From positions 1 to 25,842 of the IMG/VR virus record IMGVR_UViG_2609459774_000006: 25,842 bases of DNA; one strand, written 5' to 3'. Below the pieces are notes generated by a model, which was not told where the DNA came from, made no database searches, and saw only the letters and a list, made by a program, of their open reading frames with translations. Both the position numbers and the translations under genes were made by a program. Below are positions 1-24,047 of this stretch, piece by piece (positions within the stretch are counted from its first letter, which is position 1; every line of letters begins with the position of its first letter). Origin of the DNA: a virus (taxonomy: Duplodnaviria; Heunggongvirae; Uroviricota; Caudoviricetes).

Positions 1-405
1 ATGGATCAGGTCGTTGTTTTTCAAAAGATGTTTGAGCAAGTGAGAAAAGAGCAAAACTTCTCCTGGTTTTATTCAGAATTAAAACATCACCGTATTGCAC
101 ATTACATTTATTATCTGGCTACGGATAACATCAGAATTATTACTCACGATGACACGGTTTTGTTATTAAGAGGAACCAGGAACCTGTTAAAAGTTAGTAC
201 GACCAAGAACCCTGCTAAAATAAAAGAGGCCGCATTGCTTCATATTTGCGGAAAATCTACATTTCGGGAATACTGTTCAACACTAGCAGGCGCGGGCGTT
301 TTCCGGTGGGTTACTGATGTTAATCATAACAAACGCAGTTACTACGCCATTGATAATACGCTTTTATATATTGAAGATGTAGAAAATAATAAACCATTAA
401 TCTAG
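1..405 (+). CDS. ycgX: YcgX-like DUF1398 family protein (134 aa), chromosomal
   Basis: Complete 134-aa ORF starting at base 1; size and position next to iraM match the E. coli ycgX-iraM neighbourhood as recalled; no search run. Confidence 0.5.
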   Translation: MDQVVVFQKMFEQVRKEQNFSWFYSELKHHRIAHYIYYLATDNIRIITHDDTVLLLRGTRNLLKVSTTKNPAKIKEAALLHICGKSTFREYCSTLAGAGVFRWVTDVNHNKRSYYAIDNTLLYIEDVENNKPLI

Positions 406-610
406 CTAAAGTTGGATGCTTAAGAAATGCTTCATAATTCAGTAAGGCATTAGCATAATGGGAATAAAAGTACAGAGACTATCCCTATGGATGATAAATA
501 CTGTCCTTTTATTGCTACCCATAAATAATCACCATGCCAATACTATCAAATTGATATTTGAAATGTGATCACTTGACTTTCTATACGTTATTTTATAACG
601 GTTAATATAT

Positions 611-668
611 TTATAAAAACAACGGGTGTGCCATACGCCCGTTTCAATACTTAACGCACATGTGTTTT
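611..668. repeat. Copy A of a ~58-bp repeat containing a stem-loop (621-643); near-identical to the sequence following the icd fragment at 1471-1528
   Basis: Direct alignment by eye: aacgggtgtgccatacgcccgtt vs aacgggcgtgttatacgcccgtt with similar flanks; on the minus strand the hairpin is followed by a T-rich run. Confidence 0.45.
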
Positions 669-1100
669 GGTTTAGTCATCATCCAGTTATATGTATTTTA
701 GCCAGGAACAGGTTAAACCTTTCCTATATAACTCAAAAATTGAAACCTTATTCTCATGTCATGCTTATATTCATTATTATCGTTATATAAAAAGGCAACC
801 ATAATGTTTAGCAAATTGGCACAAAGTAGCATAAAGGCTATGTTTTAATTACAGGATGTTCAGTCATTTGAATGTATAACATTATAGCTAAACAAATCTA
901 AAACGAAGTGAATAATTTATTGTTTTCTCTAAATCTCATTTTGTTTAACATCCATTGAGATTCCTTGCTTTAAATTTTGTTTTATATAAGCAATCGTTTT
1001 AATTAATTTATTTTTTGAAGGGGTAATATACTCATATGCAAAATAAAGAAATGAACATCCAAATGAACTATATTAAATACCGTGGGATAAGACATAACAA

Positions 1101-1691: not shown

Positions 1692-2390
1692 TATATAAAA
1701 ACATTAAGTTCAAGCCATTGATATTTAATGATAAAAATTATTTTATTGTTTTTTTATTAGCCAAAATCAACTTTATTCAACCGTTTGATTTCATTGACGT
1801 TCGTTTTTATTTTGGGGAAAGGTTTTCTCTACCATTTATATCCAAATTACAAGTCTACATTTTATTAACATCTCAATACATGTGAGGCCTTGCAGACCTT
1901 TGTGAGACCTTATGTGTCTCTGTTTTGTCCCAACTTATGTTAAGAGGCACATAATTAAAAATAAGATAACGATGCCGCCAAGCAGTGCAAAACCTTGTTT
2001 ACTCCACGACTGTCTGCCCCATTATCTGCATACATAATTATCTTCCATAACTGAGATAAATGTCGGTTATGAGCGAACAACAGACGTTTAGTTTATGATG
2101 GCTGTGTCTATACATTAAACATAACATCCATTACCGGCACCGCTTATTAATTGCTATCTGATATTGTCACTAAAAAATAGGCATTCCCCGATATAATAAT
2201 CACAAAGAAGCTTTTGGTGCTGGCAATCGGTATACCTAATAGTGGACTGCGACTTTCCGGACTCGACAAGGATATATCAATGTATGAGCAGGAAAATTAG
2301 ACCGTGGTGCGTCATATGATGACTAAGCACGGATAACAGCTACTTAATTGAAACTATTGATTATATTACAGCCAGTGCCTTATAGGATGG

Positions 2391-3512
2391 TTAGTCATCA
2401 ACCGCGACTCCTGCACAATCATGGGCTATTGCCAGCAATTGTTTTTTAATTGCTTTAGCATCTACCGTCATATCTACTGTAGCAAAATGGATCTTATGTC
2501 CCTGAGTGACAACATACTCATTAAGCATATAGCCAACAGCTGGATGAAGTAGAAGACCAGCGGCATTGAGCGAAAGCGGATCCGTCTTGTTCTCCTGTGT
2601 TCTAAGGTAGGTATATAGCTGATAAATATAGCCATTACGTAGTGATTGCTCCCGATGCCAACCCTTTGTCAGAATCGAATTAAATTTGGTATCGATAATA
2701 ATACGCCGCTGGGCAGTCTTGTGTTCCAGAATAATGTCTGACTTCATTGTCGGGAAAATCTCTGCACTACCTGCACTTTGATCGCTCAACGCCCATTTCA
2801 GCTCTTTCCCTGCAGAGACCTGCCAAGTTGTTTTGGCAAGGTGTACACGATATAAGCCAGCGATACCTTTTTCAAATAGTCTTCTCATCCAGTAAAGGTT
2901 ATTTGAGGGCGCAGGTAAAAGATATTGGCCTTGATCTTCGGTCGGCATCAGCAGTTCAAAAGCTAATCGTGCGGCATCGACCATCGGTTTATCTGCGGCA
3001 TCATGGCGTCCAAAACGCCACACTGAGGGTAATTCGTGGGGGGCAGGATATCCTCCATTTATCCCCTCACGGCGAAGTGATATTGCCATAAAATGGCAAT
3101 CTGCCGCCAAAGACGGTTTCACTATGATTGAGGCCAGATGTTCTAACGCACAGCGAACATAGCGATTTCGGGGGGTGTTGAGGGTTATGTCTTGAAAATG
3201 GCAGGCAACCTGTCCCCGTTCCAGTAGTTGATGACTGGCAGTATACAGTATGTCAATGCGCCCTCTCACTCGGTTCAGGGCCGCATGACAAGTTTGGTAT
3301 CCCATATTTAAATTGCGACGTCGGCGCAGCGTAATCTCATGAAGGAGGATTGTCGCCACCAGGTCGGGGATTTCTGCTGGGTTATCTTCTACTGCGATCT
3401 GATTGCGCCCTAACTGACGAAACAGATCTGAAGCGTACAGCATCAGCATCCAGATATTTCGCATGGGAATACGTGATGCTGTATGTTGCTCACTCCCGGT
3501 TATTGTCGTCAT
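2391..3512 (-). CDS. McrC-like subunit of a McrBC-type (type IV, modification-dependent) restriction system, 373 aa
   Basis: Follows and overlaps the McrB-like gene by 4 bp; C-terminal PD-(D/E)xK-like segment (..ILEHKTAQRRIIIDTKF..). Confidence 0.7.
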   Translation of the reverse strand: MTTITGSEQHTASRIPMRNIWMLMLYASDLFRQLGRNQIAVEDNPAEIPDLVATILLHEITLRRRRNLNMGYQTCHAALNRVRGRIDILYTASHQLLERGQVACHFQDITLNTPRNRYVRCALEHLASIIVKPSLAADCHFMAISLRREGINGGYPAPHELPSVWRFGRHDAADKPMVDAARLAFELLMPTEDQGQYLLPAPSNNLYWMRRLFEKGIAGLYRVHLAKTTWQVSAGKELKWALSDQSAGSAEIFPTMKSDIILEHKTAQRRIIIDTKFNSILTKGWHREQSLRNGYIYQLYTYLRTQENKTDPLSLNAAGLLLHPAVGYMLNEYVVTQGHKIHFATVDMTVDAKAIKKQLLAIAHDCAGVAVDD

Positions 3513-5491
3513 TTTGCTAATAACACTTTTCTGGCTTCATCGACTTTATTTGGAGCATCGAACCAATATTCGGCGAGCAAAGGGCAGATCTCTGTATCAA
3601 CGACTTGTTCATACCAAGCCTGGGCATCGTTGATTTTTTGGCCGATAGCTGGGGTGACATAGCTGTGACCGATACAAAACTGTGGTCCTAAGGTAACATC
3701 TTTTGCCAGCATATCGTTAAGTACCGTCAGTCGAGATTTGATGAATGCTAACATGTCAAAATCAATTGCGTAATTATAATTTACCCAGTTTCTCCACGCG
3801 TCATTAAAAGCTGGCTTTAGATCGATAAACGCGAAACGACGGCGCAGCGCTAGGTCAAGTAGTGCGAGTGAGCGGTCTGCAATATTCATCGTACCGATGA
3901 TATATAGATTCTCAGGAATGTATATTTTTTCATCATCATTTTTAGGATAGGAAAGAGATAATGCCTCAGTCGGCGTGCGTTTATCTGCTTCCATCAACGT
4001 GAGTGTTTCACCGAAGATTTGCGCCGGATTGCCACGATTAATCTCTTCAATTATCACCACATATTTCGAGGTAGGATTATTGACTGCAGTTTTGATTGCA
4101 TTTACAAAAGGTCCATCAATTAGCGTCAATTGCCCTTCTTTACCTGGACGCCAGCCGCGAATAAAGTCTTCGTAAGAGAGGTTCGGGTGAAATTGCACCG
4201 CGCTAATACGCTCAGGTGCTTTTTCTCCCATCAAGCAGTACGCCAGACGTCGCGCTAACCAGGTTTTTCCAGTTCCGGGTGGTCCTTGTAATATCAGGTT
4301 TTTCTTGTCGATCAGGCGCTGAAGTGTGAGTTGGATCTTAGCCTCTTCCAAGAAACAGCCATCCTGCACCAGATGACTGATGTCATAAGGAACGTGAGTG
4401 AGTTTTGGCAACGGCGCACTCTCTTCGACAGTTTCCTCAGTTATCGTCTGGGATTCATTTTTCTCAAAATTCAGGTATTCATAATTTCCGGACTCAAGGG
4501 ACTTTAACTCATCATCATTGCATAGTTTCTGTAGATAAAAGTAGATTGAGCTTGTAACTGTTTTGCTCTCAGGATGCTCTACCTTGAATACGTCCAAGTA
4601 GTTTTCTTCCAACTCCGAAGCAGTGAAATAAGGGCCATTTTTTTTCAGGCATAACGCCTTAATTTTATTCAGTAAAGAGGCTTTCCACGTTCTATTTGCC
4701 ACCTCATCTTTAGACTGGCTAAGATCTGTATTCCACGCTGATAAAGAAAGTTCTGGGAAAGAATGAACCGGATAGTTTGGTTGGGTAAAGACCTCGTTCA
4801 GCGCCCGCATAAGACTCAGGTAACTTTGTCCACTACAGCGACCTTTTGCCCCGTTTTTAATGATCTTAATGTTTAACACTGTCTGAATGTAATACTGCGA
4901 CTGGCTATCTAAAGTAGGGTAGAACCAAGGACGGGTCCAGTACAACCCCATGGTGAGATTCCAACCGACATTCATTACTGTAGAAGCAATGTCATATGCG
5001 GCAGTGAAGTCTGCAGAGTTAGTATTCTGGTTATCCGCAAAGGTCATTGCCTGCGAGAACATTTCCCACAAGCATTCAATGTCATTAGGGTCGCGTGACT
5101 TTTCATAACCAAAGAACCAAGATTTTTGGTTATTCAACAGCGGGATTCCGGCAAAGGAGTCAGGAATCGGTTCGTTCACGCCCAACAAATTCGCTAGCTT
5201 GGCAGCAATAATTTTGCGATTGCTGTCGGTCAAGTTACGATTGAACAAGCCCATAGTAGTAAACGGACAAATGTCTTTTAAGGGAAAGATCTCTCCCATA
5301 ATAGATTTGTCCTGCAGATGGGACATTCCTTCCACACCTGAGGCAATTAGATGAATACCTTTGACTAATTCATCTCTACGATTTCGCCAAGTCAGTAACG
5401 CGTTGGCAAAAGCCTCATAAAAACTAGCCCAAGCAAATTTGCCATCATGTTCTGCTGTATCCACGGGAACTCCATTATACTTGTTGAGCAA
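3509..5491 (-). CDS. McrB-like AAA+ GTPase (660 aa) with a ~395-aa N-terminal region unlike canonical McrB
   Basis: Walker A LILQGPPGTGKTW and McrB-type signature IIGTMNIADRSLALLDLALRRRF in the C-terminal ~260 aa; N-terminal region not recognised. Confidence 0.8.
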   Translation of the reverse strand: MLNKYNGVPVDTAEHDGKFAWASFYEAFANALLTWRNRRDELVKGIHLIASGVEGMSHLQDKSIMGEIFPLKDICPFTTMGLFNRNLTDSNRKIIAAKLANLLGVNEPIPDSFAGIPLLNNQKSWFFGYEKSRDPNDIECLWEMFSQAMTFADNQNTNSADFTAAYDIASTVMNVGWNLTMGLYWTRPWFYPTLDSQSQYYIQTVLNIKIIKNGAKGRCSGQSYLSLMRALNEVFTQPNYPVHSFPELSLSAWNTDLSQSKDEVANRTWKASLLNKIKALCLKKNGPYFTASELEENYLDVFKVEHPESKTVTSSIYFYLQKLCNDDELKSLESGNYEYLNFEKNESQTITEETVEESAPLPKLTHVPYDISHLVQDGCFLEEAKIQLTLQRLIDKKNLILQGPPGTGKTWLARRLAYCLMGEKAPERISAVQFHPNLSYEDFIRGWRPGKEGQLTLIDGPFVNAIKTAVNNPTSKYVVIIEEINRGNPAQIFGETLTLMEADKRTPTEALSLSYPKNDDEKIYIPENLYIIGTMNIADRSLALLDLALRRRFAFIDLKPAFNDAWRNWVNYNYAIDFDMLAFIKSRLTVLNDMLAKDVTLGPQFCIGHSYVTPAIGQKINDAQAWYEQVVDTEICPLLAEYWFDAPNKVDEARKVLLAK

Positions 5492-5829
5492 TGATAATTT
5501 ATCTGTGTGAGTTTTAACATATTACTATCAGTTATAGAAAAATTTAACTACCCGATACAGAGAGCGGCATGCTGAATTTGACCTGACTTGCTTCCAACTA
5601 ATTAAAATCAACTTATTTATCAATTGGTTATTTTGGCGCATAGCGGTCATCAAGGGAATATCGCGTTGTCATAAGGTGTCGAGGCTCGGAGGTTCAAATC
5701 CTCTCATGCAAAAAATAAATAAAATTAATGACGGTTGGAAATTATTCAATACATACACTCTCGAAAGTGCATCAGCCAACCGCAGCACGTCTTGCATACG
5801 GCGTGTCTGCAGTTTTATATAATCCTGGC

Positions 5830-6055
5830 TGGAAACCTCTTATACAAAGTAGATACACCAATATCATAGATGATCGCCACCTTCTGACGCGGGACTTTTG
5901 ATGCAATTAATCGCCCGGCCTGCGCCCATTGTTCTGATGTAAGTTTAGGACGACGTCCACCAATTCCTCCCTGTGCGCGAGCATCTTCCAGTCCAACTTT
6001 TGTTCAGTCATCAATCAGTTCACGCTTCATTTCAACCAGGGCTCCATCACATGGA
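5830..6055 (-). pseudogene. C-terminal remnant of a Pin/Gin-family serine DNA invertase (HTH domain only, frameshifted)
   Basis: Minus-strand translation ..TKVGLEDARAQGGIGGRRPKLTSEQWAQAGRLIASKVPRQKVAIIYDIGVSTLYKRFPAS; upstream catalytic domain absent and frame broken. Confidence 0.6.
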
Positions 6056-6529
6056 AAAATAAAAAAAACCATCGATGTTGACGTGTCAATGTTACCTGTC
6101 AGGCTACGGAAATCCCCCCCTTACCCGCAGCTACTCGGTAAGTATAATAAGATGTTTCCTGCTCCTTCCTAACCTGTCCAGTTTCCAGACAATTAAAGTA
6201 TCACCTTATATAAGAGACTGCAGAGCGCACTTTAACCTAGGTCGTTCTGAAATAGTTGCAGATTCGATTAATCAACGATTATACTCCCCGGCACTCCAGA
6301 GGATCTGGTAAACATAAAGTCAGAGCTTGGGTATACTGGCACACAAATGGCAGATCTTGCAGGTGCAGCCAGTCATAGCCAGTGGCGAAAATACACGAGT
6401 GGTTCTGAGCCCCGCGCCATGTCATCACATATCTTGTTTTTTTATTGCTACCAATCTGACTTTGAGTACTAATGAGCTAGATAGAATTGTTTGTAAAATA
6501 AAAAAAATTGGAACAGTGATTATATAAAA

Positions 6530-7618
6530 ATGAAGAAGGTAAAATCAATTCACTATTTGCGAGGTGTAGCAGCATTACTCGTTGTTGCATATCACAATAA
6601 ACAATACCTAAATGAAGTTTACGCACAAAAAGATCTAGGTGATTTATTGTTTATTAGTGGTGGTTTTGGGGTTGATCTGTTTTTTATTATAAGTGGATTT
6701 ATAATAATGTTATCGAGTCAAAAAAAAGAAACAAATTCTCCTATTAACTTTATGACCAGGCGTTTTTTCAGGATTTACCCTGTATTTTTCATTTGCACAA
6801 TCTTATTCTTTTTATTGAACCCAGTCTTCACCGAAAGTGAATTATTGCGTTCATTGTTTCTGCTTCACCTGGACTATTATTCAGAAGCGCCATTCTTCGG
6901 ATACAACGTGCTTTATCCAGCATGGACATTAACCTTTGAAGTCTATTTTTATTTCATTTTTATGCTTGCAATATCGATGAGTCATAAAAACAGATTATTA
7001 ATATCAGTTATTGCATTGATAGTCCCGCTACTTCTCATACAGTTGAAATTTTCCAACAGCCTTTCTCTATCAAGTAAGTTTACGATTGGTGATACAGGTC
7101 ATTGGCATATTGGCTTTCTAAACTTAATGTCATCACCCATGCTGTTAGAATTCGTTTATGGGATGTTTCTGTATATAATACACAGAAAATTTAAATATAT
7201 AAAAAACGCAAAGGCGATATCATTCCTTTTGGTTTCATTTGGTGTTTGCTCATATTTTTATCAATTCAGATTTGGTCATGGCCCTTTAAACTTCGGATTG
7301 TGGGCAGCCTCCATAATTACGGGAGTTTTACTTTATGAAGTTAACTTCGGATTAAGGGAAAATAAAATACTCAGTAAGCTAGGTGATATCTCTTACTCTC
7401 TGTATTTATCCCATGCGATAGTAATGCTATTTTTAATTAATTTTAAGGATTTCATTCCGCTTTATGAAAAACCTGGGTTCTCTAAGTTTTCATTCATTAT
7501 TGCTCTTAGCTTGTTCTTATCATTCTTTATTTATAAATATATTGAAACTCCATTCATTAATATCGGAAAAACAATATCCAAAAGACTTTCAAAACCAACA
7601 TTAACTTATAGCGAATAG
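6530..7618 (+). CDS. Acyltransferase family 3 (OafA/Oac-like) integral membrane protein, 362 aa
   Basis: N-terminus MKKVKSIHYLRGVAALLVVAYH and multi-TM hydrophobic profile typical of the family; strongly AT-rich gene. Confidence 0.7.
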   Translation: MKKVKSIHYLRGVAALLVVAYHNKQYLNEVYAQKDLGDLLFISGGFGVDLFFIISGFIIMLSSQKKETNSPINFMTRRFFRIYPVFFICTILFFLLNPVFTESELLRSLFLLHLDYYSEAPFFGYNVLYPAWTLTFEVYFYFIFMLAISMSHKNRLLISVIALIVPLLLIQLKFSNSLSLSSKFTIGDTGHWHIGFLNLMSSPMLLEFVYGMFLYIIHRKFKYIKNAKAISFLLVSFGVCSYFYQFRFGHGPLNFGLWAASIITGVLLYEVNFGLRENKILSKLGDISYSLYLSHAIVMLFLINFKDFIPLYEKPGFSKFSFIIALSLFLSFFIYKYIETPFINIGKTISKRLSKPTLTYSE

Positions 7619-13299: not shown

Positions 13300-13929
13300 C
13301 TAAAACAAGGATAAACTTTGCCCTGCTCCAGGCGTTGGCTTTACAAATGTTACATCTTTAATTCTTTCGCCTAGGAGAAAAAATTTGTCCAAAGATAGCG
13401 ATGGTATTGTTGCAAACCCATCAGCCCCCTTTTTCCTAGCAACCCCTCTCACGTCCATGAGAATTCGCCCTAATACGTTCATACCATAATAGTTACCTTC
13501 TGGGTCTTTACTGGCACCCCAGAATTGGTCCTTCTCTGAGTGTTCCACGATGAAATGGTCGCCTGTACTGTCTAACAGCGCAAAGAACGTATCCCAGTTC
13601 TGGCATAATTTTACGCATACACACCACTTCATAATCGAAACTCGATTCTTATCCCATCCTGCGCGAGTTTTGGATTCAAACGATCTTGCGGTCTGCTTGG
13701 CTTCATAGGGGTTTCCTTGAGTAATGATGGCCTTTTGTATATCCGGATAGTCTGGATATCGGCATGCTTGGTAAAGGATTTCACTTGATTGAATAGGCAA
13801 CCCATTGATTAACAATGGATATCCTTTAGCCATGTTGGAAAGCCCCCCCCATTTTTCGGTGGTTTTCCTGAAGGAAACTGTGTTCTGTAGCGGATATAAT
13901 CTATAGCTCATACCACTCATTATACCCAT
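13300..13929 (-). CDS. NADAR (YbiA-like, DUF1768) domain protein, ~203-209 aa; alternative starts at 13929, 13920 and 13911
   Basis: Family hallmarks: ..GGLSNMAKGYPLLINGLPIQSSEILYQACRY.. and ..LLDSTGDHFIVEHSEKDQFWGASKDPEGNYYGMNVLGRILMDVRG; overlaps the upstream gene. Confidence 0.75.
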   Translation of the reverse strand: MGIMSGMSYRLYPLQNTVSFRKTTEKWGGLSNMAKGYPLLINGLPIQSSEILYQACRYPDYPDIQKAIITQGNPYEAKQTARSFESKTRAGWDKNRVSIMKWCVCVKLCQNWDTFFALLDSTGDHFIVEHSEKDQFWGASKDPEGNYYGMNVLGRILMDVRGVARKKGADGFATIPSLSLDKFFLLGERIKDVTFVKPTPGAGQSLSLF

Positions 13930-14932
13930 TCCGCTTCATTAGTGGATACCAGCAGTCCAATGCGGGAGCACCTGTTGGTTCATAATCTCCCCACCAAAAA
14001 GCCAGCGGCACATTATTCGGGCAATTTCGATAAGTAAATGTTGTTCCCCCAAAACCCAAACCGTCAAAAGTAGAAAAACCTAGAGGTTTGAGCACCTCAC
14101 TAGGGGTTTTCCTGTGCAGCAAGATATTAAAGCCGACTTTAGTAAGGATAGATTCGAAACGATCCCTTGAGGCTTCATTTCTAAAACTATCAGAAGAGGC
14201 ATATCCATCTCTGAATACGCCTTTGTAAAGCTCACACTCCTCGAATTTCTCGGGAGTATCTACACTATATTTCCTTGGCCAGAAAACACCTGATTGAGCA
14301 GAACGACTTTTTCGGTTTTCAACCTCACGCATACCACCATTCTTCACGTGTACAAAAATGTTTCTATCCTTAAAAATATATTCTAATCGTCTTTTTATAT
14401 TATAGTCAGATAACGTATGAGATGAAAAAAAATATACATTGAATTTAATATCTCTTAAATTAAATTTTAAAACAAAATTACTTATCGATTTGATGGCCTT
14501 TTCTCCTGAAAACGACACATCATCAATATATACAAATGTATCAAATTTATTTACTTCATCTTGAGTTGATGATTCAGTAACGATGTTAAATTTGATCCCT
14601 ACTGTTTCATAAAGAGATTTAAGCAATTCCTTCTGACTAGAACCTTTTTTTTGAATATCTAAAAAACCTGCATATCTGAAGAATTTCGCGTTCTTTTCAC
14701 TTCTTGCAATGGCTTTTATTTTTCGTTGATATTGACTTTCGGATAGGTAACCTGCATTAAGTAGATAAAGCGTTTCATCTAAGATAAATCGTCTATCCTC
14801 CACTGCAAATTGCTTAATCCATTTGCTGACATGTTCAGAGTTCATACCTTCAGCCGGAGGATATTTATAATCGCTCAACTTTTCAGCAATTTTATTGATT
14901 ACTTTTTCACCAGATAAAATATTCGAGGACAT
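13901..14932 (-). CDS. Unknown 343-aa protein with a PRPP-binding-loop-like motif (FVYIDDVSFSGEK); partner of the NADAR gene
   Basis: Long ORF with SD AAGGAA 8 nt before ATG; very AT-rich; motif hhhhDDxxxSG resembles type I phosphoribosyltransferase loop, but the fold is unverified. Confidence 0.6.
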   Translation of the reverse strand: MSSNILSGEKVINKIAEKLSDYKYPPAEGMNSEHVSKWIKQFAVEDRRFILDETLYLLNAGYLSESQYQRKIKAIARSEKNAKFFRYAGFLDIQKKGSSQKELLKSLYETVGIKFNIVTESSTQDEVNKFDTFVYIDDVSFSGEKAIKSISNFVLKFNLRDIKFNVYFFSSHTLSDYNIKRRLEYIFKDRNIFVHVKNGGMREVENRKSRSAQSGVFWPRKYSVDTPEKFEECELYKGVFRDGYASSDSFRNEASRDRFESILTKVGFNILLHRKTPSEVLKPLGFSTFDGLGFGGTTFTYRNCPNNVPLAFWWGDYEPTGAPALDCWYPLMKRNGYNEWYEL

Positions 14933-15143: not shown

Positions 15144-15728
15144 TTAAGAATAAACATCAGTAACTCGGGCCGGGCTTAATGCTACGGTTGGCGAATCACA
15201 CTTGTTTCCCCATACGTCGAAACCGTGGGAGGATTTACGCGCAAAGAGCTCAATACGTGGAAGATTACCCAGCAACCGAACCAGCATTTCACGCACGCAG
15301 TCTGGTTTACGTGAGTGCTCATGTCGCGGCGAGGTGTAGTGCTGGATGATCGAGGCGTCCTGCTGTGGTGCCCGCTTACCCTTTACCGCGAAAAGACAAT
15401 CTTCACGGTTCGCCCGGATCAGGTGTCCCATTCCCATCGCCGATTTGTCAGTTTGCTTCGGGTAGGTTTTATCCCAAGTGAAACCTTTCATTGTGATCAG
15501 GCGAAATCCCCAGGCATCGACGACTTTCATCGCCTCGAACGTTTGAGTTGGCAACCACCACATCGCCAGCTGGCAGCTTTCTGCAACCCGCTCCCTTACT
15601 GGCAGCCAGCAGATATCCTGCACCGTCATAACCAAGTATTTATGCCCGGTGCCACGCTTACCAGAATTGCATTTATCCTCGTACGTCCAGGGCGGATCCG
15701 CTTAGATCAACGTGTATTTCTTGTTCAT
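15144..15728 (-). pseudogene. MT-A70-type phage DNA N6-adenine methyltransferase interrupted by a TAA at codon 9
   Basis: Minus-strand reading MNKKYTLI*ADPPWTYEDKCNSGKRGTGHKYLVMTVQDICWLPV...; DPPW catalytic motif lies just after the stop (15702-15704). Confidence 0.7.
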
Positions 15729-20208: not shown

Positions 20209-20619
20209 TTGAATTTCAGCAGGCTCCGGGGAGTGCGAGGGGTGAAGCGGACGCGTGAACGTCGGTGTGACCAGCTGAAATCAACTCAACACTTCATACC
20301 TCAGTCGCTTCAACGAGGCGACTTAGTTATGACAACCGGCGGCCATCCACCGCCTGAATACGCGCAGAAGTCTCTATATGTTCAGCAGCCCAGCTTACGG
20401 GCAGGAGTTTTTATGGTTCATCAACATTACGGAACGCAGACCGTTAATCGAGGTGCGGTCATGCCAGGAATGCTGGTCAAACACAAAGATGGTACCTGGA
20501 CTGCATCAGCTAATTTACGCGGACGGCTATATCTGCATCGCGGCATCGAGCGCACTTATACCCGTGATTTGCTCGTGGAAGTTTTTCTCGACGGACGCGG
20601 TAACGGCCTGAATCACTAA
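20209..20619 (+). CDS. Hypothetical protein at the N/kil position of the leftward operon (TTG start in track; ATG alternatives at 20329 and 20414)
   Basis: Open frame between pL and gam; Arg-rich N-terminal stretch [15 protein letters not shown] if translated from the TTG. Confidence 0.35.
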
Positions 20620-20694
20620 TCCCCTTTCCTGTTTTCCTAATCAGCCTGGCATTTCGCGGGCGATATTTTCACAGCCATTTTCAGGAGTTCAGCC

Positions 20695-20991
20695 ATGAAC
20701 GCTTATTACATTCAGGATCGTCTTGAGGCTCAGAGCTGGGCACGTCACTACCAGCAGATCGCCCGTGAAGAGAAAGAGGCAGAACTGGCAGACGACATGG
20801 AAAAAGGCCTGCCCCAGCACCTGTTTGAATCGCTATGCATCGATCATTTGCAACGCCACGGGGCCAGCAAAAAAGCCATTACCCGTGCGTTTGATGACGA
20901 TGTTGAGTTTCAGGAGCGCATGGCAGAACACATCCGGTACATGGTTGAAATCATTGCTCACCACCAGTTTGATATTGATTCAGAGGTATAA
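20695..20991 (+). CDS. gam: Gam, RecBCD inhibitor (short form), 98 aa
   Basis: [60 protein letters not shown]... matches lambda Gam. Confidence 0.9.
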
Positions 20992-20996
20992 AACGG

Positions 20997-21782
20997 ATGA
21001 GTACAGCACTCGCAACGCTGGCAGGGAAGCTGGCTGAACGTGTCGGCATGGATTCTGTCGACCCACAGGAACTGATCACCACTCTTCGCCAGACGGCATT
21101 TAAAGGTGATGCCAGCGATGCGCAGTTCATCGCATTGTTGATCGTCGCCAACCAGTACGGCCTTAATCCGTGGACGAAAGAAATTTACGCCTTCCCTGAT
21201 AAGCAGAACGGCATTGTTCCGGTGGTGGGCGTTGATGGCTGGTCCCGCATCATCAATGAAAACCAGCAGTTTGATGGTATGGACTTTGAGCAGGACAATG
21301 AATCCTGTACATGCCGGATTTACCGCAAGGACCGCAATCATCCGATCTGCGTCACCGAGTGGATGGATGAATGCCGCCGCGAACCATTCAAAACCCGCGA
21401 AGGCAGAGAAATCACGGGGCCGTGGCAGTCGCATCCCAAACGGATGTTACGGCATAAAGCCATGATTCAGTGTGCCCGTCTGGCCTTCGGATTTGCTGGT
21501 ATCTATGACAAGGATGAAGCCGAGCGCATTGTCGAAAATACCGCATACACTGCAGAACGTCAGCCGGAACGCGACATCACTCCGGTTAACGATGAAACCA
21601 TGCAGGAGATTAACACTCTGCTGATTGCCCTGGATAAAACATGGGATGACGACTTATTGCCGCTCTGTTCCCAGATATTTCGCCGCGACATTCGCGCATC
21701 GTCAGAACTGACACAGGCCGAAGCAGTGAAAGCTCTTGGATTCCTGAAACAGAAAGCCTCTGAGCAGAAGGTGGCTGCATGA
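20997..21782 (+). CDS. bet: Bet (Red-beta) single-strand annealing protein, 261 aa
   Basis: [66 protein letters not shown]... matches lambda Bet. Confidence 0.95.
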
Positions 21783-22459
21783 CACCGGACATTATCCTGC
21801 AGCGTACCGGGATCGACGTGAGAGCTGTCGAACAGGGAGATGATGCGTGGAACAAATTACGACTCGGCGTCATCACGGCTTCAGAAGTTCACAATGTGAT
21901 AGCAAAACCCCGCTCCGGTAAAAAGTGGCCTGACATGAAAATGTCCTACTTTCACACCCTGCTGGCTGAGATTTGCACCGGTGTGGCTCCGGAAGTTAAC
22001 GCTAAGGCGCTGGCCTGGGGAAAACAGTACGAGAATGACGCCAGAGCCCTGTTTGAGTTTACTTCCGGCGTGAATGTTACTGAATCCCCGATCATCTATC
22101 GCGACGAAAGTATGCGCACCGCCTGCTCTCCCGATGGTTTATGCAGTGACGGCAACGGCCTTGAGCTGAAATGCCCGTTTACCTCCCGGGATTTCATGAA
22201 GTTCCGGCTCGGTGGTTTCGAGGCCATAAAGTCGGCTTACATGGCCCAGGTGCAGTACAGCATGTGGGTGACACGAAAAGATGCCTGGTACTTTGCCAAC
22301 TATGACCCGCGTATGAAGCGTGAAGGACTGCATTATGTCGTGGTTGAGCGGGATGAAAAGTACATGGCGAGTTTTGACGAGATGGTGCCGGAGTTCATCG
22401 AAAAAATGGACGAGGCACTGGCTGAAATTGGTTTTGTATTTGGGGAGCAATGGCGATGA
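21779..22459 (+). CDS. exo: Exo (Red-alpha) 5'-3' exonuclease, 226 aa
   Basis: [64 protein letters not shown]... matches lambda Exo; overlaps bet by 4 bp. Confidence 0.95.
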
Positions 22460-22614
22460 CGCATCCTCACGATAATATCCGGGTAGGCGCGATCACTTTC
22501 GTCTACTCCATTACAAAGCGAGGCTGGGTATTTCCCGGCCTTTCTGTTATCAGAAATCCACTGAAAGCACAGCGGCTGGCTGAGAAGATAAATAATAAAC
22601 AGGAGGATATATGA
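22456..22614 (+). CDS. Small hypothetical protein (52 aa) bridging exo and the DGQHR gene
   Basis: Hand translation [52 protein letters not shown]; ATGA overlaps at both ends. Confidence 0.4.
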
Positions 22615-23675
22615 GTCAGGTTGGTAATCATTCATTCGAATTTCCGGCATCGCAAGGTGTACAGGGTGGTACTGTTACACTCTTCCTTACCATACCAGGA
22701 AGATCGCTGGCTCGTTTCCTCGCTTCAGATAATTACGGCCATACACTGGAACGCTCTCAGCGAGAAATTAATCCAAATCGAGTACGAAAATTTTTAAATT
22801 ATCTCACTAACGCAGACTCAAGAAATGAGTCTTTTATCATTCCCCCTCTCGTAGGTAACTGTGATTCGAATATAGAATTTGTACCGTTTGGCAACACAAA
22901 TGTTGGTATAGCCAGAATTCCCCTCGACGCCGAAATAAAACTTTTTGATGGCCAACATCGTGCAGCTGGCATTGAGATATTTTGCCGAAGTTCCCCATCA
23001 ACGCTCATGGTTCCCATGATGCTTACAATGAATCTGCCGCTAAAAACCCGGCAGCAGTTCTTTTCGGACATAAATAACAACGTTTCTAAGCCATCAGCGA
23101 CCATCAATATGGCGTATAACGGCCGGGATGATATTGCTCAGGGAATGATATCCTTCCTGACCCAACATACTGTATTTGCCGATATAACCGATTTTGAACA
23201 CAACGTAGTGCCATTAAAAAGTAATATGTGGGTGAGTTTCAAGGCACTCACTGATGCAACGTCAAAGTTTGCTAGGAACGGCAATCAACAACTTGAAATG
23301 GGATATATAGAATCTGTCTGGGAGGCATGGATTACACTAACTCAGATTGACTCAATCCGACATGGTGTACACCACGCTACGTACAAGCGCGATTATATTC
23401 AGTTCCATGGAGTAATGATTAACGCTTTCGGTTTTGCGGTTCAACAGATGATGGTTAATCATTCCATCGCAGAAATAACTTCTATGATCGAAAAACTCTG
23501 TGCAACTACCAGCTCTGCAGAAAGAGAGGATTTTTTTCTGATGGATAACTGGGCGGGGATCTGCACGAAAGCCAGCCAGGAAAAACTATCGGTTATTGCC
23601 AATGTGGCAGCGCAGAAAGCAGCAGCAAACAGACTGATACAAGCTTTTACCAAAGGAAGTCTGGAAACAACTTAA
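22611..23675 (+). CDS. DGQHR-domain protein (DndB-like, ParB/sulfiredoxin-fold superfamily), 354 aa
   Basis: Literal motif ..AEIKLFDGQHRAAGIEIF.. in a 354-aa ORF; family assignment from motif only. Confidence 0.65.
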   Translation: MSQVGNHSFEFPASQGVQGGTVTLFLTIPGRSLARFLASDNYGHTLERSQREINPNRVRKFLNYLTNADSRNESFIIPPLVGNCDSNIEFVPFGNTNVGIARIPLDAEIKLFDGQHRAAGIEIFCRSSPSTLMVPMMLTMNLPLKTRQQFFSDINNNVSKPSATINMAYNGRDDIAQGMISFLTQHTVFADITDFEHNVVPLKSNMWVSFKALTDATSKFARNGNQQLEMGYIESVWEAWITLTQIDSIRHGVHHATYKRDYIQFHGVMINAFGFAVQQMMVNHSIAEITSMIEKLCATTSSAEREDFFLMDNWAGICTKASQEKLSVIANVAAQKAAANRLIQAFTKGSLETT

Positions 23676-23752
23676 TGAATCAACATTGTCTCATATCAGC
23701 ATGCTGTACGGCGTCTTTAAGGAACGGTGAGCATGAAAAACAAAATCATCAT

Positions 23753-23776
23753 GGAGCTACAGGCTCCTTTTTTATT
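23753..23776 (+). terminator. Intrinsic terminator downstream of the DGQHR gene
   Basis: Stem ggagc/gctcc with 5-nt loop followed by TTTTTT. Confidence 0.5.
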
Positions 23777-23828
23777 ATTCGCATTCACCCTCAAGCGTAT
23801 TAACCAACAATTCAGGGATTAATGAAAG

Positions 23829-24047
23829 ATGGCAGACATCATTGATTCAGCATCAGAAATTGAAGAATTACAGCGCAACACAGCAATAAAAATGCGCCGC
23901 CTGAACCACCAGGCTATATCTGCCACTCATTGTTGTGAGTGTGGCGATCCGCTAGATGAACGAAGACGCCTGGCCGTTCAGGGTTGTCGGACTTGTGCAA
24001 GTTGCCAGGAGGAGATCGAACTTAAGAACAAACAATGGGGACTGTGA
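23829..24047 (+). CDS. TraR/DksA-family C4 zinc-finger protein, 72 aa
   Basis: ..CCECGDPLDERRRLAVQGCRTCASCQEE.. four-Cys motif typical of phage TraR homologues. Confidence 0.75.
   Translation: MADIIDSASEIEELQRNTAIKMRRLNHQAISATHCCECGDPLDERRRLAVQGCRTCASCQEEIELKNKQWGL

Follow-up and report, generated by a model that had tools for sequence, protein, structure and literature searches.

The closest described relatives of the gene considered here are the DndB proteins, for which an ATP-modulated repression of dndBCDE has been reported (PMC4507180; also Xia et al. 2019, as cited in PMC11662687). Binding of both ATP and GTP has been reported for a bacterial DndB-like protein (PMC12704722), and the DGQHR domain of this family is defined by a QR pair, the DGQHR motif itself and an FxxxN motif (PMC4619093). 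The DUF262 domains of GmrSD, SspE, DndI and BrxU, which carry DGQQR in place of DGQHR, are related in fold and motifs (PMC4619093); the DUF262 domain is a nucleoside triphosphatase (NTPase) that senses DNA modification and gates DNA binding, and in DndI the arginine of DGQQR is required for the ATPase activity on which this gating depends (PMC11662687). A further point of comparison is furnished by fusions between ParB-CTPase-fold domains and methyltransferases of several families, which are enriched in prophages and for which an anti-defence role has been suggested (PMC12704722). Here we describe a gene for a 354-residue DGQHR protein in IMG/VR virus record IMGVR_UViG_2609459774_000006, a caudoviral sequence of which positions 1 to 25,842 (hereafter the window) were analysed; the window is a defective lambda-like Escherichia coli prophage inserted at icd, and E. 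coli E94 is 100% identical to it across most of its length. Based on the recurrent placement of DNA methyltransferase genes directly 3' of its relatives, we tentatively favour the reading that this is a nucleoside triphosphate (NTP)-gated, ParB-fold DNA-binding protein of an anti-restriction or DNA-modification programme, where it would most likely help or control protective methylation.

Identity of the DGQHR protein

Profile searches place the protein in the DndB family with scores far above the curated cutoffs of both TIGR03187 (189.4 bits against 58.85, E 1.1e-55) and Pfam DndB PF14072 (158.4 bits against 29.1, E 3.1e-46), and it is also matched by the PADLOC DndB model (E 1.6e-37) and, over its full length, by PHROG 7901, a family of unknown function. 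The DGQHR assignment made in a preliminary description of this stretch, which was drawn from the letters and their translations, is hence not spurious. The defining motifs lie at Q50-R51, D113-R117 (DGQHR) and F151-N155 (FxxxN) and are invariant in both of our homologue alignments. The same description had proposed a ParB-like fold, and structure prediction supports this for the N-terminal domain: an AlphaFold2 model computed with 23 homologues (predicted local distance difference test score 81, predicted template modelling score 0.56) displays an alpha/beta N-terminal domain of the ParB/sulfiredoxin fold followed by a helical C-terminal half. The latter half returned no significant match in the PDB, no nuclease domain was recovered in Pfam or NCBIfam scans of the protein, and no HEPN match was found for it; fold matches in BFVD were confined to DndB-like, AIPR and GmrSD-like viral proteins with low template modelling scores. 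The family is of modest size, with 591 clusters at E <=1e-3 among 1.84 billion representatives. Homologues of 55-73% identity are common in Enterobacterales, and many of them are on viral contigs or in phage genomes.

The resemblance to DndB (DptB) is extensive, as the two share the same Pfam/TIGRFAM superfamily, are collinear over about 290 residues including the QR, DGQHR and FxxxN motifs, are of similar length (354 against 361 residues) and have a two-domain layout; furthermore, relatives of the DGQHR gene likewise lie 5' of a gene for a DNA-modifying enzyme. Aligned with the bona fide DndB of E. coli strain NADC 6564, which is encoded beside dndCDE, the protein is collinear at full length over 292 residues with 23% identity (E 5e-26). 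In contrast to dndB, the gene is phage-borne in an early lytic operon, and its relatives adjoin methyltransferases rather than sulfur-transfer enzymes. Its score against the DndB equivalog TIGR03233 is 108.6 bits, below the cutoff of 328, and neither the window nor the annotated identical region of E94 contains dndC, dndD or dndE; we therefore reject its being a true Dnd component, and no link of the protein to phosphorothioation was found. Among other ParB-related systems, that of 7-deazaguanine (Dpd) DNA modification includes DpdB, a ParB-like ATPase encoded together with DpdC and the TGT-like transglycosylase DpdA; the annotated map of the region has no gene for a TGT-like protein. A canonical ParB is not indicated, the protein having no ParB_N or HTH_ParB hit in Pfam, with only phrog_1033 at E 0.0097, and there being no parA in the window. 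The DUF262 proteins are host-defence enzymes with a C-terminal HNH/DUF1524 nuclease, whereas the DGQHR protein has no recognisable domain of this kind and resides on a mobile element. Judged from its sequence, the gene thus encodes a free-standing DndB-family (DGQHR) protein of a poorly studied branch.

Methyltransferase and anti-restriction neighbourhoods

A survey of related loci, which the preliminary description had put forward as a check, was carried out by direct search for open reading frames (ORFs), and of 54 divergent loci from phages and IMG/VR, 42 proved to have a DNA methyltransferase gene on the same strand one or two genes further on (+1 or +2). The two genes often share overlapping stop and start codons. 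The enzymes belong to five families, namely MT-A70 (in two subtypes), phage Dam (PF05869), N6_N4 (PF01555), D12 (PF02086) and C5 (PF00145). When gene slots were counted over 130 loci with a greedy gene caller, by which some gene indices are shifted relative to the direct ORF search so that the counts differ, methyltransferases occupied 44 of 213 slots at +1/+2 against 13 of 2264 elsewhere, a roughly 36-fold rate that is indicative only, the loci being phylogenetically redundant and such ratios overstating their independence. At the level of clusters formed at 80% identity, a methyltransferase is present at +1 to +3 in 9 of 34. Among 59 lambda-like loci that possess the DUF1317 gene and lack the DGQHR gene, no such methyltransferase lies within 5 kb.

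The association extends to relatives with only 30-38% identity in Rheinheimera and Vibrio: a C5 enzyme is linked in the prophage-derived Vibrio phage Va_PF430-3_p42 and in a Vibrio genome, and in Rheinheimera we observed D12 and also Dam followed by C5. In Salmonella phage SPN1S an MT-A70 gene lies directly 3' of the DGQHR gene. Small proteins composed of three helix-turn-helix (HTH) repeats resembling sigma-70 region 4 may also flank the gene, as exemplified by locus L043 at 1711-2247 (+) and 208-669 (+), whose equivalents occur in 26 and 10 loci respectively, the window having none; such a protein is at +1 in 26 loci, and in every one of these a methyltransferase follows at +2. That the pairing recurs with enzymes of five unrelated families speaks for a functional link or for strong co-selection. 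No fusion of a DGQHR domain to a methyltransferase was seen among ten extended representatives of unusual length, the only fusion among them being that of a DndB-like domain to the mismatch-binding MutS domain I (P0230, 591 residues). We also note a Rheinheimera locus (L203) with two tandem DndB-like genes at 3846-5201 and 5301-6326, and a cluster in Pseudoalteromonas phage KB12-38 (L088, 1-8553) that combines a DGQHR gene with two PAPS-reductase-like genes, a C5 methyltransferase and another methyltransferase, and that is possibly a phage DNA-modification island of a different kind.

Comparable associations are seen on plasmids. A homologue occurs in 1071 plasmid records, 885 of them conjugative, and in a sample of one genome per species its neighbours include PsiA, single-stranded DNA-binding protein (SSB), KorA/KorB/ParA, ArdA, ArdC, RadC and KleE; the homologues within such anti-restriction arrays are 37-42% identical to the protein of the window. 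They thereby share arrays with the genes of plasmid leading regions (ArdA, ArdC, PsiA/B, SSB and orphan methyltransferases; PMC11541004), and the leading or establishment regions of plasmids are typically anti-defence in character (PMC11541004). In pOXA-48-type IncL plasmids, a homologue of 427 residues and about 42% identity is encoded in the establishment region (an example copy is listed in Table 1) together with DUF3085, RadC/JAB, HTH, DUF4942, Hha, antirestriction and ssb genes. In the common 63,589-bp pOXA-48-type variants this homologue is interrupted by IS1B. Among prophages, a ParB-HTH protein is encoded immediately 5' of the DGQHR gene in Klebsiella and Salmonella, and one Salmonella prophage encodes a protein with a Lar restriction-alleviation domain nearby. 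The anti-defence or modified-DNA role put forward in the preliminary description gains contextual support from these methyltransferase, Ard, Psi and SSB neighbours; its suggestion of a nuclease does not, as no such domain was found.

The window itself belongs to a solitary clade. In this prophage, an MT-A70 pseudogene of the nin region is the sole methyltransferase-like sequence that was detected near the DGQHR gene; it is 66% identical in a tblastn comparison to the MT-A70 enzyme that follows the DGQHR gene of SPN1S and is flagged by RefSeq as having an 'internal stop'. Across 18 alleles of the clade we counted 19 synonymous and 7 nonsynonymous changes, a ratio from which we conclude that the clade is under purifying selection. 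Such selection on a gene with no adjacent partner implies that the protein is kept for a function that needs none, and we accordingly rejected an obligate methyltransferase partner. At codon 47 (Glu; window 22749-22751), which adjoins a low-confidence loop of the structural model (residues 42-46), the 18 alleles include three changes, namely to Asp, to Ala and to a stop.

The cassette in its lambda-like operon

The leftward early operon of the prophage corresponds to the + strand of the window and comprises, in order, the S24 repressor gene, two genes of unknown function, kil, gam, bet, exo, a small ORF and the DGQHR gene, followed on its 3' side by a TraR-like gene, a DUF4222 gene, xis and int. 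This order bears out the placement between exo and xis given in the preliminary description, and reading of the sequence likewise confirms that bet, exo, the 52-codon ORF and the DGQHR gene are chained by successive ATGA stop/start overlaps, at 21779-21782, 22456-22459 and 22611-22614. Of these overlaps, the first two derive from lambda and only the third is peculiar to the cassette; the 3' end of the 52-codon DUF1317 ORF, which overlaps the DGQHR start, is unlike that of the 60-residue orf60a of lambda, and the same ATGA junction between DUF1317 and DGQHR genes is found in 17 divergent loci in total, SPN1S included.

Comparison with phage lambda by blastn gave 96.8% identity over 20613-22613 and 95.5% over 23695-24024, with nothing between. 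The DGQHR ORF and about 20 bp beyond it stand in place of lambda 31193-30748, that is, the 3' end of orf60a together with orf63 and orf61. An alignment of the window with lambda, SPN1S and locus L036 locates the left joint of the swap, with the DGQHR ATG at the exact position of the orf63 ATG and homology to lambda fading about 12 nt upstream of it; homology on the left side of the exchange was probably provided by the DUF1317 gene. The cassette has a G+C content of 42-44%, against 50-55% for the red genes. Requiring a match to at least 80% of a 1451-bp query that spans it, we detected the cassette in 283 of 5426 complete E. coli genomes (about 5%), and its flanks in 3636 of them; at the DNA level it was present in no phage record of the collection, in which lambda-like phages match the flanks alone. 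Thus the gene occupies the exact orf63-orf61 slot among the lambda exo-xis genes (orf60a, orf63, orf61, orf73 and ea22) in the same operon, but is without sequence similarity to orf63 or orf61 and encodes a single enzyme-like protein of 354 residues in place of two proteins of about 60. As it replaces these genes and is much rarer than its flanks, it is an accessory and not a core lambdoid gene, and the alignments identify it as an ordinary mosaic replacement in the variable exo-xis region. Both this cassette history and the identity of the protein are well supported.

The terminators of the region bear on when the gene would be expressed. The preliminary description had credited the gene with a terminator of its own. 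The hairpin 3' of the gene is real, but it is identical in lambda and lies inside the resumed lambda homology from 23695 onward, upstream of the TraR-like gene; it hence belongs to the backbone, and the earlier reading is rejected. A stronger, terminator-like hairpin sits between exo and the DGQHR gene. A terminator scan identified it as a 9-pair stem at 22520-22542 with a T-rich tail, and it is the counterpart of tL3 of lambda; in phage O276 (NC_049951), tL3 is annotated at the corresponding place within orf60a. The simple co-expression with Gam, Bet and Exo assumed earlier leaves this terminator out of account: with tL3 upstream of the gene it would require antitermination, and transcription from pL should reach the DGQHR gene only under that condition.

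Table 1. Positions of features in the window, with an example of a plasmid homologue
Feature	Position	Strand	Remark
MT-A70 DNA methyltransferase pseudogene	15168..15728	-	nin region; stop at codon 9, just before DPPW
gam	20695-20991	+	early operon
bet (RecT family)	20997..21782	+	Pfam RecT, E 2.7e-33
exo (lambda exonuclease, YqaJ domain)	21779..22459	+	Pfam YqaJ, E 9.2e-30
52-codon DUF1317 ORF (lambda orf60a family)	22456..22614	+	Pfam DUF1317, E 3.8e-31; phrog_1998
Counterpart of lambda tL3 Rho-independent terminator	22520..22552	+	inside the DUF1317 ORF, 5' of the DGQHR gene
Shine-Dalgarno AGGAGG of the DGQHR gene (strong)	22601..22606	+	marks the left swap joint, where lambda homology fades
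DGQHR-domain (DndB-like) protein, 354 residues	22611..23675	+	DGQHR encoded at nt 22947-22961
Right cassette end	23676..23694	+	non-lambda bases; lambda homology back at 23695 (blastn, alignment)
Hairpin GGAGCTACAGGCTCC with T-run	23753..23773	+	backbone, upstream of the TraR/orf73-like gene
TraR/DksA zinc-finger gene (lambda orf73 equivalent)	23829..24047	+	Pfam zf-dskA_traR, E 4.6e-07
pOXA-48-type DGQHR homologue	L215 (NC_021488, pKPoxa-48N1) 5989-7272		example copy

Possible functions and other features of the window

In light of these observations, the reading that we favour, that of an NTP-gated contributor to protective methylation, may be set out as follows. The cassette, which is exchangeable and belongs to the delayed-early leftward operon of a lambda-like prophage, would supply the DGQHR protein only upon induction or infection, when antitermination would read through tL3. 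ATP or GTP would be bound in a pocket formed by the QR, DGQHR and FxxxN motifs, and nucleotide turnover would gate DNA binding, by analogy with the reported behaviour of DndB, DndI and SspE. As the gene neighbourhoods suggest, the protein would serve the anti-restriction or DNA-modification programme of its element by promoting, directing or controlling the protective methylation of the element's own DNA. In many relatives the enzyme concerned would be the methyltransferase encoded directly 3' of the DGQHR gene, and in the clade of the window the protein would act alone or with an enzyme encoded elsewhere. The ParB-fold/methyltransferase fusions offer a parallel, in that a nucleotide-binding module of the ParB/sulfiredoxin fold is likewise tied to methyltransferases; they differ in that the DGQHR and methyltransferase proteins are encoded by separate genes, the DGQHR branch is divergent, and the copy in the window has no methyltransferase neighbour.

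Several points weigh against this reading. In some 30 near-identical E. coli loci of the solitary clade, no methyltransferase of the seed type was found in the 8 kb upstream or the roughly 3 kb downstream, and as the clade is conserved without one, such a partner is not obligatory. The link is present in just nine of the 34 clusters, and the redundancy of the loci noted above inflates its apparent strength. Five unrelated enzyme families are hard to reconcile with a single specific protein-protein interface, and the adjacency could reflect mere shared residence in anti-restriction islands. Finally, our literature searches turned up no work on DGQHR proteins of phages or plasmids.

Some of these points would be accommodated by a stand-alone anti-defence protein that needs no methyltransferase, putatively a nuclease-less decoy or shield akin to the DUF262 domains, which would guard phage DNA that is modified, be it methylated or host-marked, against modification-dependent restriction, or would interfere with Dnd/Ssp defence; methyltransferases would then be co-selected, since methylated phage DNA becomes a target of modification-dependent enzymes. 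Purifying selection on the solitary clade, the occurrence of relatives among varied anti-restriction genes on plasmids and phages, and the kinship in fold and motifs with DUF262 proteins (PMC4619093) all point this way, and N6-methyladenine and 5-methylcytosine enzymes of five families fit a role general to modification better than a specific partnership. Although it is a close rival of the favoured reading, we consider it unlikely, as the order of DGQHR gene then methyltransferase gene, often with overlapping codons, is kept in very distant relatives and suggests more than co-residence. That same order, with the gene upstream of a modification gene as dndB is of dndCDE, could instead reflect an NTP-modulated transcriptional regulator like DndB or KorB, which would repress or time neighbouring early genes or host genes and, in the relatives, the downstream methyltransferase, whose overexpression can be toxic. 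DndB is itself an ATP-modulated repressor (PMC4507180), and non-specific prophage methyltransferases such as M.EcoGII, for which no extra domain (such as ParB) has been reported, are toxic and kept silent (PMC5778455). Translational chaining within a long antiterminated operon leaves scant room for promoter control, however; no repeated operator-like sequence was found, although no search aimed at one was made; and in the solitary clade there is no modification gene downstream that could be regulated. Regulation, the other close rival, is hence an improbable role.

The pairing of a methyltransferase with a putative effector also resembles a restriction-modification module. This raises the prospect of a prophage defence or superinfection-exclusion factor, in the form of an Abi/AIPR-like ParB-fold nuclease or NTPase with a HEPN-like C-terminal effector, which would attack incoming or unmodified DNA or RNA and be held off from self by the neighbouring methyltransferase. 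In keeping with it, DndB has been described as a ParB-like protein with a HEPN domain and as kin of AbiU1/AIPR/COG1479 (PMC3632139), PADLOC calls the DGQHR protein DndB, and AIPR and GmrSD-like viral proteins are among its weak structural matches. Yet a gene of the pL operon behind tL3 should be silent in the lysogen, and a protein conserved in a solitary state would be self-toxic if unmodified DNA were its target; on these two grounds a defence role is disfavoured. Since the partner methyltransferases are moreover of unrelated specificities, and the plasmid copies lie in leading or establishment regions of typically anti-defence character (PMC11541004), we assign it little probability. The slimmest likelihood attaches to an accessory role in Red-type recombination or in the processing of DNA ends. 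Such a role would account for the chaining to bet and exo, and RecT/YqaJ, RdgC, DNA ligase and Rv2179c-like exonuclease genes near some relatives could be cited for it. It is disfavoured because the chaining to exo arose as a by-product when the cassette was swapped into the orf63 slot of lambda; moreover, many relatives, including the plasmid copies and the Vibrio prophage, have no recombination genes nearby, and lambda recombines without the gene.

The reading in terms of protective methylation may be extended beyond the window. The recurrent coupling of this DGQHR branch to orphan methyltransferases and anti-restriction islands appears to have gone undescribed, and one might speculate, while regarding it as doubtful, that the non-Dnd DGQHR proteins constitute an unrecognised and widespread companion module of such enzymes and islands in temperate phages and conjugative plasmids, including those of the pOXA-48 type. 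In this capacity they would be NTP-gated ParB-fold clamps or sensors acting on newly entered or replicating DNA of the element, where they would either license or steer its protective methylation or else keep modified DNA safe from modification-dependent restriction. If so, a family known only as a non-essential regulator of phosphorothioation would gain a second and more mobile role, in which DGQHR proteins help phages and conjugative plasmids, pOXA-48-type carbapenemase plasmids among them, to pass restriction, and they would represent a counterpart on separate polypeptides to the ParB-fold/methyltransferase fusions of prophages. Should the gene be an inert passenger, the locus would amount to an ordinary mosaic exchange within the exo-xis region, which is variable. 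A directly testable and experimentally tractable hypothesis is offered by the link with methyltransferases of five families.

Two further gene pairs of the window, both on the - strand, deserve mention. An McrC gene and a gene for an AAA ATPase (McrB-like), together a modification-dependent restriction system, lie at 2391-5491, beside a recombinase pseudogene and close to a truncated copy of icd, at the end of the prophage remnant that is distal to int. In the nin region, overlapping NADAR-family and phosphoribosyltransferase-like genes at 13300-14932, named after the RefSeq annotation of the identical E94 region, may be another accessory or anti-defence pair.

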